Shown here piece after piece: positions 2,322-14,989 of a stretch of 49,179 bases of DNA. Under the pieces are notes generated by a model. That model did not search any database and was not told the DNA's origin. It saw only the letters and a program-made list of their open reading frames with translations. The stretch lies in assembly GCA_019358935.1 (NCBI GenBank), contig JAHHIK010000064.1, positions 1 through 49,179 of the forward strand, written 5' to 3'. Made by a program: the position numbers and the translations under genes. The first letter of the stretch is position 1. Every line of letters starts with the position of its first letter. This stretch comes from Tolypothrix carrinoi HA7290-LM1 (GTDB lineage: Bacteria > Cyanobacteriota > Cyanobacteriia > Cyanobacteriales > Nostocaceae).

Positions 2322-5300
2322 GTGACTTATTCAGAGATGCTAAATTTTCAGAGGTTGTTTGAAGCGATACCAGGATTATATTTTGTCTTGACACCGGATT
2401 TTGCGATTGTGGCAGCAAGCGATGCTTACTTGCTGGCAACCAAGAGAAAACGAGAAGAGATTATCGGACGTAAGTTGTTCGATGTTTTTCCAGATAATCC
2501 CAACGATCCGAACGCGACAGGGGTGCAGAATTTGCGTGCGTCAATAGAAAGCGTATTGAAGTATCGAAAGCCTCATACGATGGCTGTGCAAAAATACGAC
2601 ATTCCTCGACCAGAATCGGCTGGGGGCGGATTTGAGGAGCGCTACTGGAGTCCGCTAAATTCGCCGATCTTCGACGAAAACGGCGAGCTTACCCACATTA
2701 TCCACCGAACCGAGGATGTAACAGAGTTTGTGCGCGTGCAGCAGCAGAGAAATGAGCAGCGCCAAATTAATCAAGAGTTACAGACTCGTTCTCAGCAGAT
2801 GGAAATGGAAATTTATCTGCGATCGCAAGAGTTACAAAAACTCAATAAACAACTACAAACCGCGAATGAAGCACTTTCAGAATTAGATCGTGCGAAAACC
2901 GAATTTTTCAGCAATGTCTCTCACGAGTTTCGCACCCCCTTAACACTAATGTTAAGTCCCATCGAAGATGCGTTATTTGATACCTCTTCCCCGTTACCCG
3001 CTGTGCAAAAAGAACGACTCGAAGTAGTACAGCGCAACGGACTTCGCTTGCTGAAATTAGTCAACACTTTGCTCGATTTTTCCCGCATTCAAGCAGGACG
3101 CATTCAAGCAACTTATGAACCCACAGATTTAGCCACGCTGACAACTGAACTTGCCAGCGTGTTTCGTTCGCTGATCGAACAAGCTGGAATGCAGTTGGTA
3201 GTCGAGTGTTCTCCCTTACCTGAAGCGATTTATGTCGATCGCCAAATGTGGGAAAAAATTATTTTTAATTTATTATCAAACGCCTTTAAGTTTACCATTA
3301 CAGGCAGAATTACAGTTCGCTTGCAAAACCTTGAAACTGATATAGAGTTGACAGTTGAAGATACTGGTATCGGCATTCCCCCAGAAGAATTGCCGCATTT
3401 GTTTGAGCGATTTCATCGCGTGAAAGGCGCACAGGGACGCAGTTTTGAAGGCTCAGGCATTGGTTTGGCACTGGTACAGGAATTGGTGAAATTACACGGT
3501 GGCACAGTCAGCGCGACGAGTGTACTGGGGCAAGGCAGTTGTTTTAAAGTAACTATTCCTAAGGGGGAGCGGGGGAGCGGGGGAGCGGGGGAGCGGGGGG
3601 CAGGGGGCAGGGAGCAGGGGGCAAGGATTCTTCCCAATGCCCCATGCCCAATGCCCCATGCCCTTTCCCCAATTCCTTATGTGGAAGAAGCGCAGCGCTG
3701 GCTATTTGCAAAAGAGGAGGGGGGAGACAAGGAAGAGGGGGGAGACAAGGAAGCAAGTCACGAGCGATCGCGCATTTTGTTGGCTGACGATAATGGAGAT
3801 ATGCGCGATTATGTTCAGCGGCTGTTGAGTTCGCGTTATATAGTTGAGGCAGTCGCAGATGGAATCGCGGCGTTAAATGCTATTCGGGAAAATCCACCGG
3901 ATTTGGTGTTAAGCGATGTGATGATGCCGAAAATGGATGGCTTTGAATTGTTGCGATCGCTGCGAGGCAATCCTCAAACTCAAGAAATCCCGATTATTCT
4001 CTTATCAGCGCGAGCGGGGGAAGAATCGCGCATTGAAGGACTCGCGGCTGGAGCGGATGATTATTTAATTAAACCATTTTCCGCACGCGAATTACTTGCA
4101 CGAGTCGAATCAAGCTTAAAGTTAGCTAAACTGCGACAAACCACACAAACGTTACATACCGAAGCCGAAACCGCTAAAGCAAATCTAGAAAGCGTTTTAG
4201 CAAACCTTGAAGATGGATTTGTCATCCTGGATCGCAATTGGTGTTTGACCTATATCAACGATCGCAAAGCGGAAATTTGGGGAATAAACCGCTCTGAGGC
4301 GATCGGCAAAAACATTTGGGAATTATTGCCCGATCTCGTTGGAGGTGAACTTTACGGAAGACTACATCAAGTCATGCGCCTCCGAACTCCGATGCAGTTT
4401 GAGCATCGCGACACCAATTCAAATCGCTGGTTTGACAATCGAGTTTATCCGACAGCGGATGGTTTGGCGATTATTTGTACTGATATTAGCGAACGCAAAC
4501 GCTCACAAGAAGCTCTAGGAGAAAGTCAGCGGCGGTTCCGGCGACTGGTAGAATCTAACTTGTTTGGCGTCGTCTTCGGCGATTGTTTTGGTGGACTGCA
4601 CTACGCCAATGAGTATCTGTTAAATTTGGTAGGCTACACCTTAGAAGAAATGCAGTCTGGGCAAGCGCGATGGGATCAACTCACCCCTAAAGAATTTGCT
4701 GCCTTAGATGCCAAAGCGGTTGAGCAATTAAGCACTTCTGGAGTTTGTGCCCCTTATGAAAAGGTCTACCTCCATAAAAACGGTCGGCGGATTCCGATTT
4801 TAATTGCTGCTGCGTTGCTTCAGGAACCGTTTAACGAAAATCAGGAAGTCGTTGCCTTCATACTGGATCTTACCGAATTGAAGCGAGTGACGGAGGAGCG
4901 CGATCGCTTCTTCAATTTATCCCTAGATATGCTAGCGATCGCAAACATCGACGGCTATTTTATACATCTCAATCCAGCTTGGGAACGAACGCTGGGATTT
5001 AGCGAAACCGAACTGAAAGCAAAGCCCTATCTTGATTTTGTGCATCCAGATGACCGAGCTGCAACGCTCTTTGAAGCGCAAAAATTAGCACAAGGACATC
5101 AAACAATTGGCTTTGAAAATCGTTACCTGACTTTAGACGGTTCTTACCGATGGATTTCCTGGAATGTTGCGTCCTTCCCAGAACAGAATGTTCTTTACGC
5201 CGCAGCTCATGATATTACCGATCGCAAACTAGCAGAACAAACGCGAGAACAATTACTAGTGCGCGAACAAGCCGCACGAGAAGCCGCCGAAAACGCCAAC

Positions 5301-6416
5301 CGCGTCAAAGATGAATTTCTCGCGGTTCTCTCCCACGAGTTACGCACCCCGCTTAATCCGATTCTCGGTTGGTCGAAATTGCTACAAATGGGCAAGCTGA
5401 ATGCGGCAAAATCTATTGAAGCGATCGCCATCATCGAACGCAACGCCAGACTACAAGTACAACTGATTGACGATTTGCTTGACATTTCGCGCATTTTACG
5501 CGGCAAAATGAGCTTAACCGTGATGCCTGTCGATATGGCTACGGTGATTGCAGCCGCTTTGGAAACGGTACGATTAGCTGCCGAAGCCAAATCGTTGCAA
5601 ATTCAATATGTGACGGCAAACGCAGTCGGTACAGTCAACGGCGATTCAGGACGATTGCAGCAAGTTGTCTGGAATCTCTTATCGAATGCGGTTAAATTTA
5701 CACCAGCAGGCGGACAGATTACAGTTAACTTGGCACAAGTTAAAACAAACGTGCAAATCCAAGTCAAAGACACAGGCAAAGGAATTAATCCCGACTTTCT
5801 GCCGTATGTATTTGAGCATTTCCGCCAAGAAGATGGTGCAACAACGCGCCAATTTGGGGGATTGGGATTGGGACTGGCGATCGCACGTCAAATCGTGGAA
5901 ATGCACGGCGGTACGGTGATGGCAGACAGCCCAGGTGAAGGACTGGGAGCTACTTTTACAGTACAAATTCCTTCATTTCATCTATCTGAGGAGATAAAGT
6001 CAGATGAATCACCCAAATCAGCAGCTAATCTAAGCGGCGTTAATGTTTTAGTCGTCGATGATGATGCTGATTCGCGGGAGTTTATCAGCTTTATTTTAGA
6101 GCAAGAACAGGCGATTGTTACAACCGTGGCATCGGGGTTTGAAGCGCTACAAGTAATTGAGCAAGCAATTCCTGATATCGTCGTCAGCGATATTGGAATG
6201 CCAGAAATGAATGGATATATGCTTATGCGTCAACTACGTATGCGTACAGCATCAATTGGAGGCATCAAAGCGATCGCTCTAACAGCTTATGCCGGAGAAT
6301 TAAATCAACAGCAAGCACTCGCAGCCGGCTTTCAACGACATTTAGCTAAACCTGTTGAAATCGATGAATTAATTCAGGCGATCGCTACATTAGTAGGCAT
6401 CGGGCATGGGGCATAG
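2322..6416 (+). CDS. Hybrid sensor histidine kinase (PAS-HisKA-HATPase-REC-PAS x3-HisKA-HATPase-REC)
   Basis: Two H-boxes (SHEFRTPL, SHELRTPL), two N/G boxes (NLLSNA, GxGxGL), two receiver domains (SDVMMP, SDIGMP), PAS motifs. Confidence 0.92.
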   Translation: MTYSEMLNFQRLFEAIPGLYFVLTPDFAIVAASDAYLLATKRKREEIIGRKLFDVFPDNPNDPNATGVQNLRASIESVLKYRKPHTMAVQKYDIPRPESAGGGFEERYWSPLNSPIFDENGELTHIIHRTEDVTEFVRVQQQRNEQRQINQELQTRSQQMEMEIYLRSQELQKLNKQLQTANEALSELDRAKTEFFSNVSHEFRTPLTLMLSPIEDALFDTSSPLPAVQKERLEVVQRNGLRLLKLVNTLLDFSRIQAGRIQATYEPTDLATLTTELASVFRSLIEQAGMQLVVECSPLPEAIYVDRQMWEKIIFNLLSNAFKFTITGRITVRLQNLETDIELTVEDTGIGIPPEELPHLFERFHRVKGAQGRSFEGSGIGLALVQELVKLHGGTVSATSVLGQGSCFKVTIPKGERGSGGAGERGAGGREQGARILPNAPCPMPHALSPIPYVEEAQRWLFAKEEGGDKEEGGDKEASHERSRILLADDNGDMRDYVQRLLSSRYIVEAVADGIAALNAIRENPPDLVLSDVMMPKMDGFELLRSLRGNPQTQEIPIILLSARAGEESRIEGLAAGADDYLIKPFSARELLARVESSLKLAKLRQTTQTLHTEAETAKANLESVLANLEDGFVILDRNWCLTYINDRKAEIWGINRSEAIGKNIWELLPDLVGGELYGRLHQVMRLRTPMQFEHRDTNSNRWFDNRVYPTADGLAIICTDISERKRSQEALGESQRRFRRLVESNLFGVVFGDCFGGLHYANEYLLNLVGYTLEEMQSGQARWDQLTPKEFAALDAKAVEQLSTSGVCAPYEKVYLHKNGRRIPILIAAALLQEPFNENQEVVAFILDLTELKRVTEERDRFFNLSLDMLAIANIDGYFIHLNPAWERTLGFSETELKAKPYLDFVHPDDRAATLFEAQKLAQGHQTIGFENRYLTLDGSYRWISWNVASFPEQNVLYAAAHDITDRKLAEQTREQLLVREQAAREAAENANRVKDEFLAVLSHELRTPLNPILGWSKLLQMGKLNAAKSIEAIAIIERNARLQVQLIDDLLDISRILRGKMSLTVMPVDMATVIAAALETVRLAAEAKSLQIQYVTANAVGTVNGDSGRLQQVVWNLLSNAVKFTPAGGQITVNLAQVKTNVQIQVKDTGKGINPDFLPYVFEHFRQEDGATTRQFGGLGLGLAIARQIVEMHGGTVMADSPGEGLGATFTVQIPSFHLSEEIKSDESPKSAANLSGVNVLVVDDDADSREFISFILEQEQAIVTTVASGFEALQVIEQAIPDIVVSDIGMPEMNGYMLMRQLRMRTASIGGIKAIALTAYAGELNQQQALAAGFQRHLAKPVEIDELIQAIATLVGIGHGA

Positions 6417-6482
6417 GGCATTGGGCAATGGGCATTGGGCATTGGGCATAGGGCATTGGGCAATGGGCATGGGGCATTGGTA
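6401..6482. repeat. STRR heptamer array (GGGCATW) overlapping the kinase stop codon
   Basis: Tandem GGGCATT/GGGCATA/GGGCAAT units; last codons GHGA* are repeat-derived. Confidence 0.9.
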
Positions 6483-6526: not shown

Positions 6527-6724
6527 CTAAAAGGCTTTGGGTAGTCCAGCTTGTTTCAAAACTCCGTTGGCGGTATGGCGTGACTTGATAGATGCGTCTA
6601 CAACAAAGCGACGATCTGTGATTGGACTGTACCAGATTTCATGATCTCCTTTGCCTTGCCGTTCAAAGTAGCACCCAACTTCTGAAAGCATCTTTTTCAA
6701 CTCAGGAGTAAACGACGCACTCAT
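6527..6724 (-). CDS. hicA: HicA-family toxin (mRNA interferase)
   Basis: 65 aa; RQGKGDHEIW motif and C-terminal LKQAGL typical of HicA. Confidence 0.85.
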   Translation of the reverse strand: MSASFTPELKKMLSEVGCYFERQGKGDHEIWYSPITDRRFVVDASIKSRHTANGVLKQAGLPKAF

Positions 6725-6970
6725 CTATGAAGCGACCTTAATCAACTCTTGTCGATGGCTGGTTAACTCAAAGGTGATAGAACCCACATAGTCAGCAGAA
6801 ACAATTTTGTTAAGAATGATGAGTTCTGGAATTATTTCTCGCAGCTTTTGCATTAGAACCTCAATCGTAGAAGCTTCTGTTACCAATCCGGGTACGTCAT
6901 CACTAGTTGCTACCCAAACTTCTGCGTCTGAATCCCAAAAAGCTTCAACCTTAAATGTGATTTGTGTCAT
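6725..6970 (-). CDS. HicB-like antitoxin (DUF1902 type)
   Basis: WDSDAEVWVATSDDVPGLVTEASTIE motif; abuts hicA. Confidence 0.8.
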   Translation of the reverse strand: MTQITFKVEAFWDSDAEVWVATSDDVPGLVTEASTIEVLMQKLREIIPELIILNKIVSADYVGSITFELTSHRQELIKVAS

Positions 6971-7169: not shown

Positions 7170-7415
7170 ATGATGTCTTCGCTTAGAGTCAACGACGCTC
7201 AAAATAATTTGCAAGAGTTGATCGACCAAGTTGTAGAGCAGGGTAAACGTGTGACCATTCAGGGCGATCGTGGTAATGCGATTCTGCTTGCCCAAAAAGA
7301 CTGGTCTGCAATTCAGGAGACTCTTTACTTGCTATCTGTACCTGGAATGCGAGAATCTATAAAAGAAGGACTGGCAACCCCGATCCAAGAATGCGATGAG
7401 GAATTGGATTGGTGA
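7170..7415 (+). CDS. yefM: Phd/YefM-family antitoxin
   Basis: NLQELIDQV...DWSAIQETLYLLSVPGMRESIKEG typical of YefM/Axe. Confidence 0.85.
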   Translation: MMSSLRVNDAQNNLQELIDQVVEQGKRVTIQGDRGNAILLAQKDWSAIQETLYLLSVPGMRESIKEGLATPIQECDEELDW

Positions 7416-7720
7416 GTGATGGGGTAATGAAGAGCCACTTCCGAATCCTGAAGAAATAAGTTGGAAGTTGGTTTACACAAAACAAGCGCAAAAAGACAAA
7501 GAAGAAATTAGCTTCTAGCAACTTAAAGGAGAAAGCCGAGGAGTTGCTTGTAGTTCTTAAAAAAAATCCCTTTCAAAATCCTCCACCTTATGAAAAGCTG
7601 GTTGGTGACTTATCAGGTGCTTATTCTCGTAGGATAAACATACAGCATCGGTTGGTATATAAGGTCATCGAATCCGAACAAGTAATCAAGATAATTCGGA
7701 TGTGGACGCATTACGAGTAA
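7412..7720 (+). pseudogene. yoeB: Txe/YoeB-family toxin pseudogene
   Basis: Reconstructs to MSWKLVYTKQAQKD.KKLASSNLKEKA...NPPPYEKLVGDLSGAYSRRINIQHRLVY...MWTHYE. Interrupted by 44 bp after codon 2 (7418-7461) and a one-base frameshift near 7498. Confidence 0.85.
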
Positions 7721-7847
7721 GTTTTAAGTAGTTCATGACAATATTATATCTTGGGGTTGACCCGAACTTAGTATTAATTGTGGTTAACTCTTAATAATCG
7801 CCTTTCATTCACCTTTGGATCTCGGTTGTTGCAGTTCTGCAAATTAT

Positions 7848-8276
7848 TTATACTGTCCAATTTTGTGTCACCAAACCTGGTACTTGACTAAAATCACGAT
7901 TATTTCGGGTCAAAAGTATTAAATTTTGTGAAATAGCAATTGATGCAATTCGCAAATCCATTGTAGCGATACGAACTCGCTGCGCTTTCAGTCCATCGAA
8001 AACTGTTGCTGCACTAGTATCGAATGGTAGAACTGGAGCAACTGAGAAACCTTGAAGAATCTCCAGCAGTATCATGTATCCTCGAATTGTATCAGCCGAT
8101 GTTTGGGCACGATTGATAAAGGTATTAGCACCAAGAACTTGTTCGTGAAGACTAATAATGGAAAATGCAAAATCTGCGGGTGAGTGTTGAGCAATTCGAG
8201 CCGTTAAGTTTGCGTATTCCGAAGCAGAACGCCGTTGTAAGAAACTTATATGGTCGGTATCCAAGAGATACTTCAC
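7848..8276 (-). CDS. vapC: PIN-domain VapC toxin
   Basis: YLLDTD, MDLRIASIA and LLTRNNRDF PIN motifs. Confidence 0.9.
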   Translation of the reverse strand: MKYLLDTDHISFLQRRSASEYANLTARIAQHSPADFAFSIISLHEQVLGANTFINRAQTSADTIRGYMILLEILQGFSVAPVLPFDTSAATVFDGLKAQRVRIATMDLRIASIAISQNLILLTRNNRDFSQVPGLVTQNWTV

Positions 8277-8491
8277 GCTTGGTCACTGGTTTCGTCTGTG
8301 GGTCTATCAGCGTGGCGCAAAGACTCACCATACTCCAGAACTTTGAGGAAAACTTGCTCATCCGAAATTGAACCCGTCACTTTCTCAAGCCAATTGCTAG
8401 GAGTGGGAGCAGCGATAAGCAAACGTTTAAGTTCGGCAACTGTCTGCTCAAGATTTACCAAACGTTGCTCAATGGTAGTTTCATCTAGCAT
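8273..8491 (-). CDS. Putative antitoxin partner of VapC
   Basis: Small ORF overlapping the vapC start by 4 nt; probable start ATG 8491 (MLDETTIEQRL). Confidence 0.7.
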   Translation of the reverse strand: MLDETTIEQRLVNLEQTVAELKRLLIAAPTPSNWLEKVTGSISDEQVFLKVLEYGESLRHADRPTDETSDQA

Positions 8492-8625
8492 AACTTTATA
8501 ATGATGCAAAAAATCAACGGCTGGCACTATGTCAATCATAGCTGACTATGGATCTGCAATAATTTTCAGATATTTATCCTAAGTGGTTGTAATCCATGTG
8601 TCTGTTAATTATAGTTGACTATTAA

Positions 8626-8780
8626 TACTCCCTTCCCGCTACAAAATTACCTATCTTCTTTTCCTTCCTCCTTCGTGTCCTTCTCCTGTCGGAGACGCTG
8701 CGCGAACGTGTCTAGCCTTCGGCAACGCCAAGGGCGAACGCGGTTCGTTAAATAGGTATTCTTCGAGCGGGAAGGGAGTA
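8626..8780. mobile_element. MITE (155 bp) carrying two nested ~24-bp elements
   Basis: Perfect 15-bp TIRs TACTCCCTTCCCGCT / AGCGGGAAGGGAGTA; inserts at 8683-8706 and 8715-8738; solo right end of the same type at 45685-45712. Confidence 0.8.
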
Positions 8781-8805
8781 ATCGCCCTTCACTCACCATA
8801 ATTGT

Positions 8806-8990
8806 CCCTTGGATCTCGGATGTTCGTGTTCAGAACACAAAGTTCCGAGTTCAGAACACAAAGTTCCGAGTTCCAAGCATGAAGTTTCGAGTTCTGAGCA
8901 TGAAGTTTCGAGTTCAGAACACGAAGTTTCGAGTTCAGAACACGAAGTTTCGAGTTCTGAACATGAAGTTCCGAGTTCTGAAGGTGAAAA
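8806..8990. repeat. 26-bp leader motif plus 21-bp tandem array (GAGTTCWGAACACGAAGTTTC, about 7-8 units)
   Basis: Direct inspection; same unit family and orientation as 13850-14058. Confidence 0.9.
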
Positions 8991-9049
8991 CTGGAGTTTT
9001 GAGCCTCAACATTGAAGATTAGAGGTTTATTTTTCCTGTTTTCTTCTCA

Positions 9050-12000
9050 TTAATCCCCGCTTTTATCTTCTTCTTTACTCCAAACATATTTACGGCAGAC
9101 TTCGCAAGCGGCTTTTGCTTCCTCTGTTTGCGGATTGGTGAAGATGGGATGGTAACGCAACCTGTCGCAACAGACTTGCAACCATCCACGCCAACCACCC
9201 CGCCACAACCGCACTGTGCCGTCTTCACCGCCACTAACAATCGTCTGCCCATCTTGGCTAATGGCGACAGAAGAGACATAACCCTGATGACCACGCAAAG
9301 GTTCAGCTAAGGTCAGACCTTGGCGGTTCCACAACCGCACCGTGCCCTCTTCACCGCCACTGACAATCGTCTGCCCATCTTGGCTAATGGCGACAGAATA
9401 GACATAACCCTGATGACCACGCAATGGTTCAGCTAAGGTCAGACCTTGGCGGTTCCACAACCGCACCGTGCCCTCTTCACCGCCACTGACAATCGTCTGC
9501 CCATCTTGGCTAATGGCGACAGAATAGACATAACCCTGATGACCACGCAATGGTTCAGCTAAGGAAAGACCTTGCAGGTTCCACAACCGCACTGTGCCGT
9601 CAGTACCGCCACTGACAATCGTCTGCCCATCTTGGCTAATGGCGACAGAATTGACAATACCCTGATGACCAGGCAATGGTTCAGCTAAGGAAAGACCTTG
9701 CAAATTCCACAACCGCACTGTGCTATCATAACTACCACTGACAATCGTCTGCCCATCTTGGCTAATGGCGACAGAATAGACAATACCCTGATGACCAGGC
9801 AATGGTTCAGCTAAGGACAGACCTTGGAGGTTCCACAACCGCACTGTGCCGTCAGTACCGCCACTGACAATCGTCTGCCCATCTTGGCTAATGGCAACAG
9901 ACCTGACACTACCCTGATGACCAGGCAATGGTTCAGCTAAGGTCAGACCTTGGTGGTTCCACAACCGCACTGTGCCATCATAACTGCCACTGACAATCGT
10001 CTGCCCATCTTGGCTAATGGCAACAGAATAGACATAACCCTGATGACCACGCAATGGTTCAGCTAAGGTCAGACCTTGCAGGTTCCACAACCGCACCGTG
10101 CCGTCAGTACCGCCATTGACAATCGTCTGCCCATCTTGGCTAATGGCGACAGAATAGACAACACTCTCATGACCACGTAATGGTTCAGCTAAGGTCAGAC
10201 CTTGGTGGTTCCACAACCGCACTGTGCCATCATAACTGCCACTGACAATCGTCTGCCCATCTTGGCTAATGGCAACAGAATAGACAACACTCTCATGACC
10301 ACGTAATGGTTCAGCTAAGGTCAGACCTTGGTGGTTCCACAACCGCACTGTGCTGTCACCACCGCCACTGACAATCGTCTGCCCATCTTGGCTAATGGCG
10401 ACAGAATGGACAACACCCTGATGACCACGCAATGGTTCAGCTAAGGAAAGACCTTGCAAATTCCACAACCGCACTGTGCTGTCACCACCGCCACTGACAA
10501 TCGTCTGCCCATCTTGGCTAATGGCGACAGAATTGACAATACCCTGATGACCACGCAATGGTTCAGCTAAGGTCAGACCTTGCAGGTTCCACAACCGCAC
10601 TGTGCCGTTACGACCGCCACTGACAATCGTCTGCCCATCTTGGCTAATGGCGACAGAAGAGACCCAATCCTCATAACCACGCAATGGTTCAGCTAAGGGA
10701 AGACCTTGCAGGTTCCACAACCGCACCGTGCCGTCAGCACCGCCACTAACAATCGTCTGCCCATCTTGGCTAATGGCGACAGAATTGACCCAACCCTCAT
10801 GACCACGCAATGGTTCAGCTAAGGAAAGACCTTGCAGGTTCCACAACCGCACCGTGCCGTCAGTACCGCCACTGACAATCGTCTGCCCATCTTGGCTAAT
10901 GGCCACAGAAGAGACATAACCCTCATGACCACGGAAGGGAATAGAGACTCTGGCTTTATTTGTCACCCGACTCAAACTGTTCTGAACTGGTGCGAGAATC
11001 TGCTGGGGTAATTTCTCCAGATTCTCACCCATAGTTTGAATTGCCAAAACTAGACTTTCTAGGGGTTGAAAAGGCAATAAATTCTCTACTCTCGCGGCTT
11101 TCTCTCGCAATCGTGATTCAGTGAGTGCCTTTTCTAATGTGGCAATTTGGTGCTGTTCATAAGCATCACTGCGTTGATAAAAATTTTTGGCTTGAGGTGA
11201 TGATAAAAACTCTAGCTTTTCCCAATTTTCCCGCACCTCTGCCAATAATCCCCCCTGCATTAAGTATTTTTCATTCTCCCCTTTATTCACCCACTCGCGT
11301 AAAGCATCTGCTAACCGATCGCTCAACCGCCGCAAATCTCGGTCTTGTTGTCGCCATTGGGCAAACCGCTGCCAACCCTCAATTAAGGCTTCATGGGCTA
11401 AATCAATCCACGCTTTTTCTTGTTCATCTTTCCCAGCAACCAGCAAACGTCCTTTCACTAATCCTTCATCTAGCAATTCACTTAATGCTTGCTGCTGTTT
11501 TTGCTCATTGCCAGCAATGGTTAACAGTTCAGCTTTTGCTTGGCGCTGTCGGGTGTCCTTTTCTCCCTCTCCCGTCCGCACTAATCGCAGGAAAATTTGC
11601 TTAATCCAGTCCTTCTCTTGTTCATTTCGTTCTTGAGTCGGGGAATCCTGCTGATAATCTTCGTAAAGATAAACATTTTCTGCATGAAAATTCAGCGCCC
11701 CTGTCAATCCTTGGAAGTTTTCATACTGTTCTAAGGTGAGTTGATGCTTTTGTTGGTCGCGTTTTTCCCAGAGTTTAGTTAAAGCAAACTCCATCAACGG
11801 CAAGTATCCCGGTTCTTTACCAACATCTTCTAAAATTTCATGTACTAGTCTTTCTTCAACACTATGACCTTGAAGTTTAGCAGGTTCGGTTATTGTCTCT
11901 TTTAAATCAACTCCAGTTATGCGCGGCATCAAAACAAGCTGATTTTCAATCAATTTATTTAAAGAGGGATAATCTGAACATGGTTCGAGAAAATCCGATC

Positions 12001-13252
12001 GCATGGTAATTATAACTGCCAACCGCGAATCGGTCATCTCTACTACCTGAGTCAGCAATTCAATAAATCTCTGCTTTTCTTCAGCAACAGAGACAGTAAA
12101 TAGTTCCTCAAACTGATCTACTACCAATAAAAATTTGTCTGCACCTGTGAGATGCTCCAAAATTACAGGTAAAGGATTCGCTTCATTAGTAATCAACTCC
12201 CAAAGCAATCTTTCTTTTTTCGCCCCTGGAAAAAATGCTTTCAGAACTCCTCTCAATTCCTGCAAAGGCTGAAATCCTGGCTTGATTAACGGTAAAATTT
12301 GCCAGACACTACGATCTAATTCTGGAATCAAACCCGCCTGAACTACAGAAGATTTACCACTCCCGGAAGCGCCAATAATCGAAACAAAGGGCTTTTGCGC
12401 CAGTTTCCCCAGAATCTTCCTCACAACCTGCTTGCGCCCAAAGAAAAACTGTTCTTGTTCCGCTTCAAACGCTTTTAAACCTTGGTAAGGACATTCTTCC
12501 TTTACCTCAAAGGTTTGAGCTTGTGTTTGATTGTTGTGGGTAACTAGAGTAATCGAACGCCCCCAACCCATGCGGATTGGTTCTTGACCACTGCTTTTAA
12601 GTTCTGTAGCAAGTATATCGAAGAGGCGATCGCCTGTCACCTGTCCGCGATCGTTAGTGTTCTCTGGTGACAAACCTGCCAGCAAAGCAGTTGTAAAAAT
12701 ACTGTGTTGTGCTATTTTTTTAGCAAACGCTTGTTGAAAACCTCTGCAAGCAGCAATAAAATAGTAATCGCGCTGTGAAATAAAGGCAGTAAGAGTTTTT
12801 TCGATGAGATTGCGTTCTAAAAATTCACCGCTATGACAGCAATCTAACAGCACTACTAAACTACTCAGGTCGGAATCTCTAATTAAATTGTTCAGACTCC
12901 CAAGACTAATCCCGCCTGTTTGTTCAATAATTTCCTTGCCTTGAGTGACAATTGTCAAGTCAGAAGTGGCTAGATATGCTTGTTGTGTTCCTAAGCTGTC
13001 AGATACGGTGATACCATGACCTGTAAAGTAAATTAGCGCTTCGTTTTTAACTGCTTGTTGTTGCAAAAGTGTTTTTAAAGCTTCAGCCAACTTAGTTGTA
13101 CTAACTTTCCCTTTGAGAACAGCGATATCCTCAAAATCACCATGCGCTTTTAGTACCTGCGCCACGGCTTCTGCGTCCGTAGCTGGTTTTGTGAGGTTGG
13201 AAAGCTGATTTGTATAATCTGTAATGCCAACAACAAGCGCGTAACGAGCCAT
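9050..13252 (-). CDS. Caspase-like peptidase (C14) - nSTAND NTPase - 14x WD40 protein (NLR-like architecture)
   Basis: YFTGHG and LLDCCHSG dyad; CPYQGLKAF..FFGR, GASGSGKSS (Walker A), VVDQFEELF (Walker B); 14 near-identical 42-aa WD40 repeats. Confidence 0.9.
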   Translation of the reverse strand: MARYALVVGITDYTNQLSNLTKPATDAEAVAQVLKAHGDFEDIAVLKGKVSTTKLAEALKTLLQQQAVKNEALIYFTGHGITVSDSLGTQQAYLATSDLTIVTQGKEIIEQTGGISLGSLNNLIRDSDLSSLVVLLDCCHSGEFLERNLIEKTLTAFISQRDYYFIAACRGFQQAFAKKIAQHSIFTTALLAGLSPENTNDRGQVTGDRLFDILATELKSSGQEPIRMGWGRSITLVTHNNQTQAQTFEVKEECPYQGLKAFEAEQEQFFFGRKQVVRKILGKLAQKPFVSIIGASGSGKSSVVQAGLIPELDRSVWQILPLIKPGFQPLQELRGVLKAFFPGAKKERLLWELITNEANPLPVILEHLTGADKFLLVVDQFEELFTVSVAEEKQRFIELLTQVVEMTDSRLAVIITMRSDFLEPCSDYPSLNKLIENQLVLMPRITGVDLKETITEPAKLQGHSVEERLVHEILEDVGKEPGYLPLMEFALTKLWEKRDQQKHQLTLEQYENFQGLTGALNFHAENVYLYEDYQQDSPTQERNEQEKDWIKQIFLRLVRTGEGEKDTRQRQAKAELLTIAGNEQKQQQALSELLDEGLVKGRLLVAGKDEQEKAWIDLAHEALIEGWQRFAQWRQQDRDLRRLSDRLADALREWVNKGENEKYLMQGGLLAEVRENWEKLEFLSSPQAKNFYQRSDAYEQHQIATLEKALTESRLREKAARVENLLPFQPLESLVLAIQTMGENLEKLPQQILAPVQNSLSRVTNKARVSIPFRGHEGYVSSVAISQDGQTIVSGGTDGTVRLWNLQGLSLAEPLRGHEGWVNSVAISQDGQTIVSGGADGTVRLWNLQGLPLAEPLRGYEDWVSSVAISQDGQTIVSGGRNGTVRLWNLQGLTLAEPLRGHQGIVNSVAISQDGQTIVSGGGDSTVRLWNLQGLSLAEPLRGHQGVVHSVAISQDGQTIVSGGGDSTVRLWNHQGLTLAEPLRGHESVVYSVAISQDGQTIVSGSYDGTVRLWNHQGLTLAEPLRGHESVVYSVAISQDGQTIVNGGTDGTVRLWNLQGLTLAEPLRGHQGYVYSVAISQDGQTIVSGSYDGTVRLWNHQGLTLAEPLPGHQGSVRSVAISQDGQTIVSGGTDGTVRLWNLQGLSLAEPLPGHQGIVYSVAISQDGQTIVSGSYDSTVRLWNLQGLSLAEPLPGHQGIVNSVAISQDGQTIVSGGTDGTVRLWNLQGLSLAEPLRGHQGYVYSVAISQDGQTIVSGGEEGTVRLWNRQGLTLAEPLRGHQGYVYSVAISQDGQTIVSGGEEGTVRLWNRQGLTLAEPLRGHQGYVSSVAISQDGQTIVSGGEDGTVRLWRGGWRGWLQVCCDRLRYHPIFTNPQTEEAKAACEVCRKYVWSKEEDKSGD

Positions 13253-13319
13253 CTATACATATTTAAGTTGTCTGTTACAGAATAAGATAACGTAAATACA
13301 CCTAAAATCTGAGGGCTTA

Positions 13320-13697
13320 ATGTCGAACATAGAACGTTTAGTCTTTGAAGAAGACGGGGAAATCTATACAATTCTCTTCGAGTCCAAGGAAACGCCAACT
13401 GTTCCAGAAGTAGTCACACCGGAGGTTGATGACGATAAAGAATCCTACGGTGGGCTGCAAGAGGCATTTGTCAAGATTGAGGAAGTTCACCATCAAATAC
13501 GAGCTTATACCAAATATGCCATTGGCGCTTTTAAAAATTTAGGTGCAGCCGAAGTCGAAGAGGTGACTCTCAAGTTTGGCTTGAAGATAGGCGGAAAAAC
13601 TGGTATCCCCTTCGTCACTGAAGGTTCAGCAGAGAGTAATTTTGAAATTGAGGTGAAGTGTAAGTTTCCTGAGAAGAAGCAAAATTCTAGTACTTAA
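13320..13697 (+). CDS. Small peptidase-co-occurring protein (CU044_2847/Trypco-like)
   Basis: 125 aa; VEEVTLKFGLKIGGKTGIPFVTEGSAESNFEIEVKC motif; divergent from the caspase gene with a 67-bp gap. Confidence 0.65.
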   Translation: MSNIERLVFEEDGEIYTILFESKETPTVPEVVTPEVDDDKESYGGLQEAFVKIEEVHHQIRAYTKYAIGAFKNLGAAEVEEVTLKFGLKIGGKTGIPFVTEGSAESNFEIEVKCKFPEKKQNSST

Positions 13698-13772
13698 GGT
13701 TGTGCTTGGGCAGGGATGAGCTGGCGTTGCTGAATATAATTATGAATTTGTCTCACGCAGAGCCGCAAAGAC

Positions 13773-13817
13773 AAGCCAGCGCCGTGCGGGGGTTCCCCCC
13801 GTTGAGGCGACTGGCGC
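13773..13817 (+). mobile_element. 45-bp structured mini-element inside a CGCARAG repeat / MITE remnant
   Basis: AAGCCAGCGCCGTGCGGGGGTTCCCCCCGTTGAGGCGACTGGCGC; near-identical to the reverse complement of 26583-26627. Confidence 0.8.
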
Positions 13818-13849
13818 GCAGAGAGTAAGAGTTTAAGAGACATCATTAA

Positions 13850-14058
13850 CCCTAGAATCTCGGATGTTGCAGTTCCAAGCACGAAGTTTCGAGTTCCAAG
13901 CACGAACTTTCGAGTTCCAAGCACGAACTTTCGAGTTCCGAACACGAACTTTCGAGTTCTGAACACGAACTTTCGAGTTCCAAGCACGAACTTTCGAGTT
14001 CCAAGCACGAACTTTCGAGTTCCAAGCACGAAGCTTCGAGTTCCAAGCACGAAGCTGA
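13850..14058. repeat. 26-bp leader motif plus 21-bp tandem array (GAGTTCCAAGCACGAACTTTC, about 9 units)
   Basis: Direct inspection. Confidence 0.9.
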
Positions 14059-14152: not shown

Positions 14153-14989
14153 TCAACGCGGCAAATGCACCTTAGCCGGCTTTAAAGAGGAAAAATCACA
14201 GATTGAGTTAAACGGACAAAATCGACAGTGATATCCTGGATTTGGGGGAAAAATTTTACTAAAGCTATTATTAGTTAGTTGATATCTTTGTAAATCTCGC
14301 TGATGTTTTTGAGCAATACTAGCTAACTCAAATTCTAAAGATTCTAATTCGCCTTTTGTAATGCTAATCAAATCAGATTTTTTACTAAACTCTAAATTAT
14401 AAAATGAAGCAACCGCTCGATATTGCGGATAAAGATAACGAGCAGCTAATAAATAAACTAATGCCTGTCTTGTATCAAAAGCAGATTTACCAGTTTTGAA
14501 ATCTAAAATATGTAAAGTATCAGAAGAATCTGAAAAAACACAGTCCATCGTCGCATATAAGCGGAAGGAATAATTTTCCCGTTCAATCAAAATAGGTTTG
14601 GGAAAGCCTTCATCACCGCGAGTTAACTGAATGATGCGCTTACCCGAAAGTAATGGTTCTTCATGATATTTCTTTAAAATTTGCAATACGCGCTGCTGAA
14701 CTTCCTCGCTTGAGTAATTTAATTTCAGTAGCTGTGCAACTTTTTCTACACCGTCTGAAGAGTTCAACAAGTGTCGATTGTGATGAAACTCATAAACGCC
14801 TTTTTGGGCAAGTAGCCCAATGCGCTGGGGTGCGGTGGCTGTTTTTAACAGTGCTTTGACTAGTGGATCGTGTTGACGCGCTTTGATAAACCCCCGTCTC
14901 ATCTGGCAATGCCAGCGTTCTTGCCCGGAAGCTGGGGCAATTAAAGACCAAAGGTGATAACTGGCAAAAGGTTGATCGGGGGTTGACAT
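14153..14989 (-). CDS. PD-(D/E)XK nuclease family protein (RecB/Cas4-like fold)
   Basis: MDCVF...ILDFKTG motif, QALVY, C-terminal CRFCPFNSIC cysteine cluster. Confidence 0.75.
   Translation of the reverse strand: MSTPDQPFASYHLWSLIAPASGQERWHCQMRRGFIKARQHDPLVKALLKTATAPQRIGLLAQKGVYEFHHNRHLLNSSDGVEKVAQLLKLNYSSEEVQQRVLQILKKYHEEPLLSGKRIIQLTRGDEGFPKPILIERENYSFRLYATMDCVFSDSSDTLHILDFKTGKSAFDTRQALVYLLAARYLYPQYRAVASFYNLEFSKKSDLISITKGELESLEFELASIAQKHQRDLQRYQLTNNSFSKIFPPNPGYHCRFCPFNSICDFSSLKPAKVHLPR

Follow-up and report, generated by a model that had tools for sequence, protein, structure and literature searches.

The window analysed here, a 49,179-nt stretch of the Tolypothrix carrinoi HA7290-LM1 genome (contig JAHHIK010000064.1), carries a chromosomal island in which a vapBC toxin-antitoxin (TA) module and an NLR-like module are each enclosed by co-oriented copies of a 26-bp repeat. 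The island is real and family-wide, and probably a form of repeat-mediated cassette shuffling. Judging from sequence comparison, host recombination between the co-oriented copies probably excises, inserts and replaces modules, with other repeats of the island acting likewise; we regard the 26-bp copies as one set of homology arms among several in an island prone to recombination, and not as a dedicated exchange site. A crossover between two copies would loop out a module together with one copy (994 or 5044 bp in the window). Re-entry would proceed by the reverse crossover, or from linear DNA that enters with repeats at both ends, and could target the same place, another repeat of the island, or a plain array elsewhere in the chromosome. 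Duplicated segments rich in repetitive extragenic palindromic (REP) sequences, WD40 repeats and microhomologies would provide further arms. In this way TA and NLR-like modules would be added, removed and swapped, with no integrase, in an island that itself moves between genera.

Repeat Copies in the Window

All three 26-bp copies of the original prediction are present, at 7812-7837, 8806-8831 and 13850-13875 (repeat family D16 in the window), with start-to-start spacings of 994 bp (copies 1 and 2) and 5044 bp (copies 2 and 3). They are above chance, the window giving three matches and each of 100 shuffles none. A genome-wide search, proposed along with the motif, found only these three in the 7.96-Mb genome at up to four mismatches of any copy; a looser search gave three places at five mismatches and six at six. 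The upstream piece common to copies 1 and 2 (7795 and 8779) is there as described, copies 2 and 3 continue straight into 21-bp arrays (called by Tandem Repeats Finder, TRF, at 8823-8982 with 7.6 units and at 13871-14053 with 8.7 units), and 10 bp separate the end of copy 1 from the vapC stop.

The gene order, in which the gene calls are borne out by Pfam, is histidine kinase, hicA, DUF1902 gene, yefM, frameshifted yoeB, copy 1, vapC, putative vapB, copy 2 with its array, caspase-nSTAND1-WD40 (the NLR-like gene), Trypco1, copy 3 with its array, PD-(D/E)XK gene and phosphoglucomutase; chromosomal core genes flank the island. A copy had been claimed for each module boundary: three of the five boundaries have one, and the junctions of the histidine kinase gene with hicAB and of hicAB with yefM-yoeB lack it. 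The NLR-like module and VapBC do lie between direct repeats, with the correction that the 5.0-kb unit holds Trypco1 besides the NLR-like gene. The PD-(D/E)XK gene, which had been counted among the cassettes, is instead a conserved core gene found in 10 of 11 genomes of the genus.

A palindromic 21-bp tandem-repeat family has an end piece of 55-75 bp, and the 26-mer forms the core of this piece. The last 21 bases of the 26-mer keep the same register as the array units, and 21 of the 28 copy-to-copy spacings below 400 bp in relatives are multiples of 21. The consensus built from copies in relatives spans about 55 bp, with conservation extending about 30 bp leftward, and around vapBC in genomes G218 and G212 the direct repeats measure 76 bp. 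The three copies and their arrays lie on the plus strand. Copy 1 (7774-7837) consists of the tail and the 26-mer with no array, and the alignment with relatives places a 10-bp deletion in it. Copy 2 (8605-8831) has its tail split into 8605-8627 and 8779-8805 by an insert and leads, after the 26-mer, into a palindromic array of seven 21-bp units in register with it (8832-8982, TRF). Copy 3 (13843-13875) retains a short tail remnant and the 26-mer and is followed by a palindromic array of eight 21-bp units (13876-14053, TRF).

Probable Exchange of Modules at the Repeats

The comparison of strains called for in the original prediction bears directly on vapBC (vapC, encoding a PIN domain, at 7848-8276 and putative vapB at 8273-8539; minus strand, 7848-8539 in all), which forms the 994-bp unit between copies 1 and 2. 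It is bracketed by repeats in the window, in G218 and in G212, and a single copy occupies the place in loci L030, L031, L022 and L052, where the order is yoeB, one copy, array and NLR-like gene, with no vapBC. When the window is compared with G218, 80 of 703 positions differ in the stretch that ends with the last bases of copy 1 (88.6% identity; last difference at 7833). Across vapBC and the non-coding DNA upstream of it 22 of 786 differ (97.2%), and beyond vapBC identity falls to 85% in copy 2 and to 75% in the array; the step at copy 1 has p = 5e-11. Third-position differences follow the same division, with 7/140 (5%) on the vapBC side against 11/68 and 12/71 (16-17%). Fast turnover of the repeats could explain the drop in identity on the right, but not the step in coding DNA on the left.

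A second case is provided by genome G003, where an array, an NLR-like gene, a 26-mer and another array stand in this order between a mechanosensitive-channel gene and a multicopper oxidase gene. The same site holds one intact array in G000, G001 and G009 and a stub in G005. The left array end in G003 matches the NLR-side array of the window at 39 of 42 positions, and the right array continues into host DNA. We infer that this layout is the one expected from a single crossover of a repeat-bearing circle with the resident array; Trypco1 has been lost from this NLR module at a microhomology. The half of the original prediction that invoked homologous recombination is supported by empty alleles with a single copy, by the step in identity at the repeat and by an NLR-like gene inside a resident array.

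Other arrangements are bounded by repeats as well. In L033 the NLR-like gene and Trypco1 were lost inside an array unit. A truncated second NLR-like gene follows a small gene, here called gene X, in L021 and L024 and precedes the first NLR-like gene in L026 and L051, with repeats as its bounds each time. A different vapBC, 70% identical, is bracketed by a second family of 21-nt arrays, with direct repeats of 282 bp in L189 and 76 bp in L186. Most of the events between loci may have been either gains or losses.

Direct repeats around a module might also be products of its insertion, if the module duplicates 40-280 bp of any target and the repeat end was by chance the target here. Such insertion with long target duplication is described for restriction-modification genes by Furuta et al. 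2010 (PMC2853133), whose list of cases includes one of 88 bp in Microcystis. The island resembles these cases in having cargo between direct repeats of at least 30 bp (76 bp around vapBC), one copy at the empty site and no mobile-element enzyme. Relatives of vapBC in L171, L182 and L183 also lie between direct repeats of unrelated sequence (75, 204 and 41 bp), as this explanation would have it, but of the 29 vapBC loci outside the island type, these three included, 21 have no flanking repeat of at least 40 bp. In long target duplication the repeated stretch is the target specific to its locus; in the island a single repeat family serves at many boundaries and moves together with the cargo. It brackets many different cargoes, and the same cargo is found at different sites. 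For vapBC either origin may apply, but the NLR-like gene of G003 came with a 26-mer and an array end of its own that are missing from the resident array. We consider insertion products an improbable explanation and favor recombination between the repeats.

Breakpoints Away from the Repeats

The original prediction expected the breakpoints of strain differences to coincide with the motif. This holds only in part, and a number of observations weigh against the repeats as the means of exchange. In L029 the NLR-like gene was lost through duplicated REP-rich segments, in L040 and L042 modules were lost at other junctions than the motif, L025 has lost DNA within vapBC by deletion at a microhomology, and of the vapBC unit only the DNA upstream of vapB is left in L027 and L028. 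When the island arrived at its present site, its left end joined without the motif, and G003 lacks an array at the empty site. Insertion into a resident array was seen once, in G003; 20 further arrays were checked and held no cargo. Block ends are concentrated in intergenic DNA, where they are not enriched in repeats: the repeats make up 30% of the intergenic length and take 9 of 27 intergenic ends when the window is the reference, and 40% of the length and 19 of 46 ends when it is L024. This test is crude, as array length changes and small inserts give false ends; a further 32 ends (window) and 28 (L024) lie inside genes, many of them from WD40 repeats. Moreover, the mapped loci were picked by the motif and are related, and the counts are not of independent events. 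Finally, for RecA a homology of 55-75 bp at 82-90% identity is short.

Some of these observations would fit repeats that are mere passengers, that is, 3' structural elements or relics of a tract trailing gene X that are copied along in generic rearrangement without steering exchange. Breakpoints not enriched over other intergenic DNA and at least six losses at other junctions are in line with this, as is the stability of the arrays at orthologous housekeeping sites: among 20 arrays sampled from three genomes of the genus, 15 have an array at the matching G000 site, three do not and two could not be paired. The array region at 8832-8982 also folds strongly as RNA (z = -6.4) and lies 3' of minus-strand genes. 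However, a consensus scan found no intrinsic-terminator or promoter-like match on any 26-mer, the totals for the region being at chance level, and passengers account poorly for empty alleles that cleanly keep one copy, for a step in identity where copy 1 ends, and for an array split by the NLR-like gene in G003. For these reasons the passenger role appears unlikely, and recombination at the repeats, as one set of arms among several, is preferred.

Distribution and Composition of the Island

The motif occurs in 107 of 389 genomes of the family, with no control matches; the 283 genomes taken from the order's other families do not have it. Loci were mapped for the window and 45 others picked by the 26-mer among 150 listed of 267 matches. 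In these 46 loci 112 copies are forward and one is reverse; 26 loci have at least two copies, and up to five are stacked in one island. The most frequent cargoes are the caspase part of the NLR-like gene (28 loci), Trypco1 (28), gene X (24) and a RAYT-like gene (23). TA genes comprise hicA (16 loci), yefM (14), yoeB (8) and vapC (2), and PemK, ParE/Phd, YafQ, caspase-TPR and GNAT with ASCH are also found in this mosaic of cargo. In L015, L016, L018 and L020, caspase-nSTAND1 genes carry a HisKA/HATPase histidine kinase domain in place of the WD40 sensor.

On the right the island is anchored by GH116 in 25 of the 46 loci; on the left its neighbours differ (UPF0182 in 13, htrA in 6, and others). 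In the genus of the window the island is located between the histidine kinase gene and PD-(D/E)XK. Because hicAB, Trypco1 and vapBC are 90-97% identical to the copies of genus g66, above the 77-81% of GH116, polA and PD-(D/E)XK-pgm, the island appears to have been exchanged between genera. The domains of the NLR-like genes are mosaic, with STAND identity ranging from 73 to 95%, which points to general recombination. Among plasmids there were seven partial matches, none with the motif region, and among viral contigs no exact match.

Plain arrays of the same 21-bp family are found at 18 further sites of the host genome, mostly by housekeeping genes and without the 26-mer. Genome-wide, G000 has 92 tandem arrays of true period 21 (at least 100 bp, 7-mers excluded), which belong to many sequence families and all but two of which lie outside long open reading frames (ORFs). 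One array of another sequence family is in the window itself (1877-2164). At C58:2398-2576 and C52:30692-30870 of G000, period-21 arrays stand 278-395 bp upstream of members of a second small hypothetical gene family, a pairing also seen in L187. A TA cluster in L189 and L186 is built on the second 21-nt array family mentioned above. In L166, compared with G000 C18:65306 and C13:70510, an array with short unique flanks is found at a different locus in G009, with 7-bp repeats on both sides, hinting that such repeats may also relocate DNA.

Two other identities of the repeat were tried and rejected. Heptapeptide ORFs over the arrays are open on both strands and in several frames, with one sub-threshold Pfam match, and were not retained as genes. 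The tail of the 26-mer runs in frame into UPF0182 in five loci, as if it were the start of that gene, but 143 bp of different DNA occupy this place in L029 and L047, and the in-frame join is therefore read as a derived deletion. Rfam gave no family at a meaningful score, two microRNA matches being far below the gathering score.

Gene X and RAYT-Like Genes

Gene X encodes an uncharacterised protein of 157 aa with 1499 homologues; its relatives occur in Nostoc, Calothrix, Aulosira and others, and look-alike clusters are found in Cyanobacteriota, Bacteroidota and Pseudomonadota. In a sample of the best 80 of 396 matches (L067-L146), all close relatives, a 21-nt periodic tract starts at the gene X stop in 54 loci (threshold 0.55), against none upstream, and a 26-mer is located 91-662 nt downstream of the gene in 48. 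The 26-mer lies at the far end of this trailing tract, and gene X is likely the source of the repeat. In other clades the neighbours of gene X are PIN/Phd, Uma2, DUF433/DUF5615, DUF3800 and methylase genes. No match to the protein was found in Pfam, NCBIfam or PADLOC, and its Atlas neighbours are unnamed. The predicted structure, based on a shallow alignment with 39 close sequences, has pLDDT 67 and looks all-helical; the best solved-structure match (Z 6.1 over about 69 residues, root-mean-square deviation 3.4) is uninformative and gives no sign of a new fold, and there was no viral match at E < 0.001.

A dedicated enzyme could in principle act on the repeats, either an HUH transposase of the RAYT type or the gene X protein recognising the hairpin-forming units, cutting or pairing them, and so capturing and releasing modules. 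The palindromic units, the tract placed after gene X and in none of the 80 loci before it, and the presence of RAYT-like genes in 23 and of gene X in 24 of the 46 loci agree with such a role. But a RAYT query found no match in G003 or G218, and G000 gave no more than a broken trace. The RAYT-like gene, which scores below the NCBIfam cut-off, is a frequent cargo with REP-like GTAG hairpins of its own, separate from the 26-mer. Gene X is absent from the island of the window (G000 has three paralogues, two with an array within 230 bp and the third at a contig edge) and its product, all-helical in appearance, belongs to no Pfam or NCBIfam family. Junctions occur at many different bases, and no recurring recombinase gene was found in the 46 loci. 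Taken together, a dedicated enzyme seems very doubtful, and host recombination is retained as the probable agent. In G000, the paralogues at C59:25444-25914 and C43:57395-57859 are directly followed by a 21-nt periodic tract.

A bolder form of this idea, to which we give equally little probability, is that gene X and its palindromic tract constitute an undescribed gene-capture system, in which the protein would bind or process the repeats and make them recombinogenic. Were this so, the approximately 20 resident arrays of the family (of approximately 90 period-21 arrays in all) would be programmed landing pads for repeat-ended defence modules, and the system a functional analogue of the integron without an integrase.

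Comparison with Known Systems

Integrons have IntI, an attI site and cassettes each followed by attC. The island is like them in its head-to-tail modules, each with a co-oriented, hairpin-prone repeat behind it, and in its TA and defence-type cargo. It differs in lacking IntI and attC boxes, in having two-gene or divergent modules with their own upstream DNA, and in its variable crossover points. No match to IntI (TIGR02249) exceeded the cut-off in five genomes including G000, where the best score was 53.8 against 265 bits, and none lies on this contig, in agreement with the statement that the window has no integrase. A box-consensus scan of both strands found no attC boxes (RYYYAAC/GTTRRRY) downstream of vapC, the NLR-like gene or PD-(D/E)XK. 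The integron-like alternative in the original prediction is accordingly not supported.

The mobile unit of REPINs consists of REP hairpins with GTAG ends. The 21-bp tandem unit here has no GTAG end, and, unlike REPIN/RAYT elements, the arrays stay at orthologous sites within the genus. From a CRISPR array they differ in units that run head to tail without spacers and in the lack of a meaningful Rfam match. The 2008 work of Elhai et al. on small cyanobacterial repeats may cover these arrays. The arrays share an intergenic, palindromic and dispersed nature with REPIN/RAYT and with the small dispersed repeats or short tandemly repeated repetitive sequences (STRRs) of cyanobacteria (compare PMC3184786).

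By analogy, the island would work most like the shuffling of PeSL elements in T4-type phages. The account of these elements by Arbiol et al. 2010 (PMC2839356) describes conserved repeats of about 100 bp around variable genes, with a single copy in the empty allele, and its model proposes excision of mini-circles and their re-insertion at the same or another resident copy, with no integrase. The vapBC alleles show the same pattern of a variable gene between two repeats and a single repeat in the empty allele. Here, however, the setting is a bacterial chromosome and not the hyperplastic region of a T4-like phage, and the cargo consists of TA and NLR-like modules of up to 5 kb. The repeat is the end of a palindromic 21-bp tandem array, with no sigma-70 promoter or terminator match, unlike the promoter-terminator composite of PeSLs. 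Circles are reported as demonstrated for PeSLs in the same account; those of the island are predicted from the sequence.

No description of this island or repeat family was found in the open-licence literature. Two things limit the surprise: PeSL shuffling and long target duplication are known examples of this class of mechanism, and arms other than the repeats are used as well. The island nevertheless offers a testable route by which filamentous cyanobacteria may stack and trade TA and NLR-like modules across genera, with no integrase or transposase at the site, and a possible role for abundant 21-bp intergenic arrays. "Defence" is in this context a label taken from the gene families: PADLOC gave domain-level matches only for the NLR-like gene and none for the TA genes, and Trypco1 appears in PMC7159879 among the components of predicted conflict systems.

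Other Features of the Window

At its left junction with the histidine kinase gene (2322-6416) the island has a short tandem repeat of 7 bp (6396-6480, plus strand) and no 26-mer. The first cargo on the minus strand is hicA (6527-6724) with the hicB-like DUF1902 gene (6725-6970; Pfam, 6527-6970 in all); the pair has no adjacent 26-mer in the window and one in relatives. It is followed on the plus strand by yefM (7170-7415) and a frameshifted yoeB-like toxin gene (about 7409-7720; Pfam, 7170-7720 in all). A premature stop interrupts yoeB in G218, and yefM is intact. The putative vapB has no Pfam or NCBIfam match. Concerning the 75-bp direct repeat of L171, its left copy is kept in L170 and L172.

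The NLR-like gene (9050-13252, minus strand, Pfam), which lies in the 5044-bp unit enclosed by copies 2 and 3, has a WD40 region (9203-10933) composed of 13.7 copies of a 126-bp repeat at 91% identity, whose copy number differs among relatives. Its divergent partner is Trypco1 (13320-13697, plus strand, Pfam). The Cas4-like PD-(D/E)XK core gene (14153-14989, minus strand) is the right anchor of the island in this genus; it matches the PADLOC model Aga_Cas4-like_Nuc with E 2.5e-126, though it is a conserved neighbour of pgm. The insert in the tail of copy 2 (8628-8778) resembles a transposable element of the miniature inverted-repeat type (MITE), with a length of 151 bp, terminal inverted repeats of 13 bp and TA on both sides. 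It is absent from the same tail in G218, G212 and G222, and related copies are found on C20, C50, C16, C69 and other contigs of the host genome.

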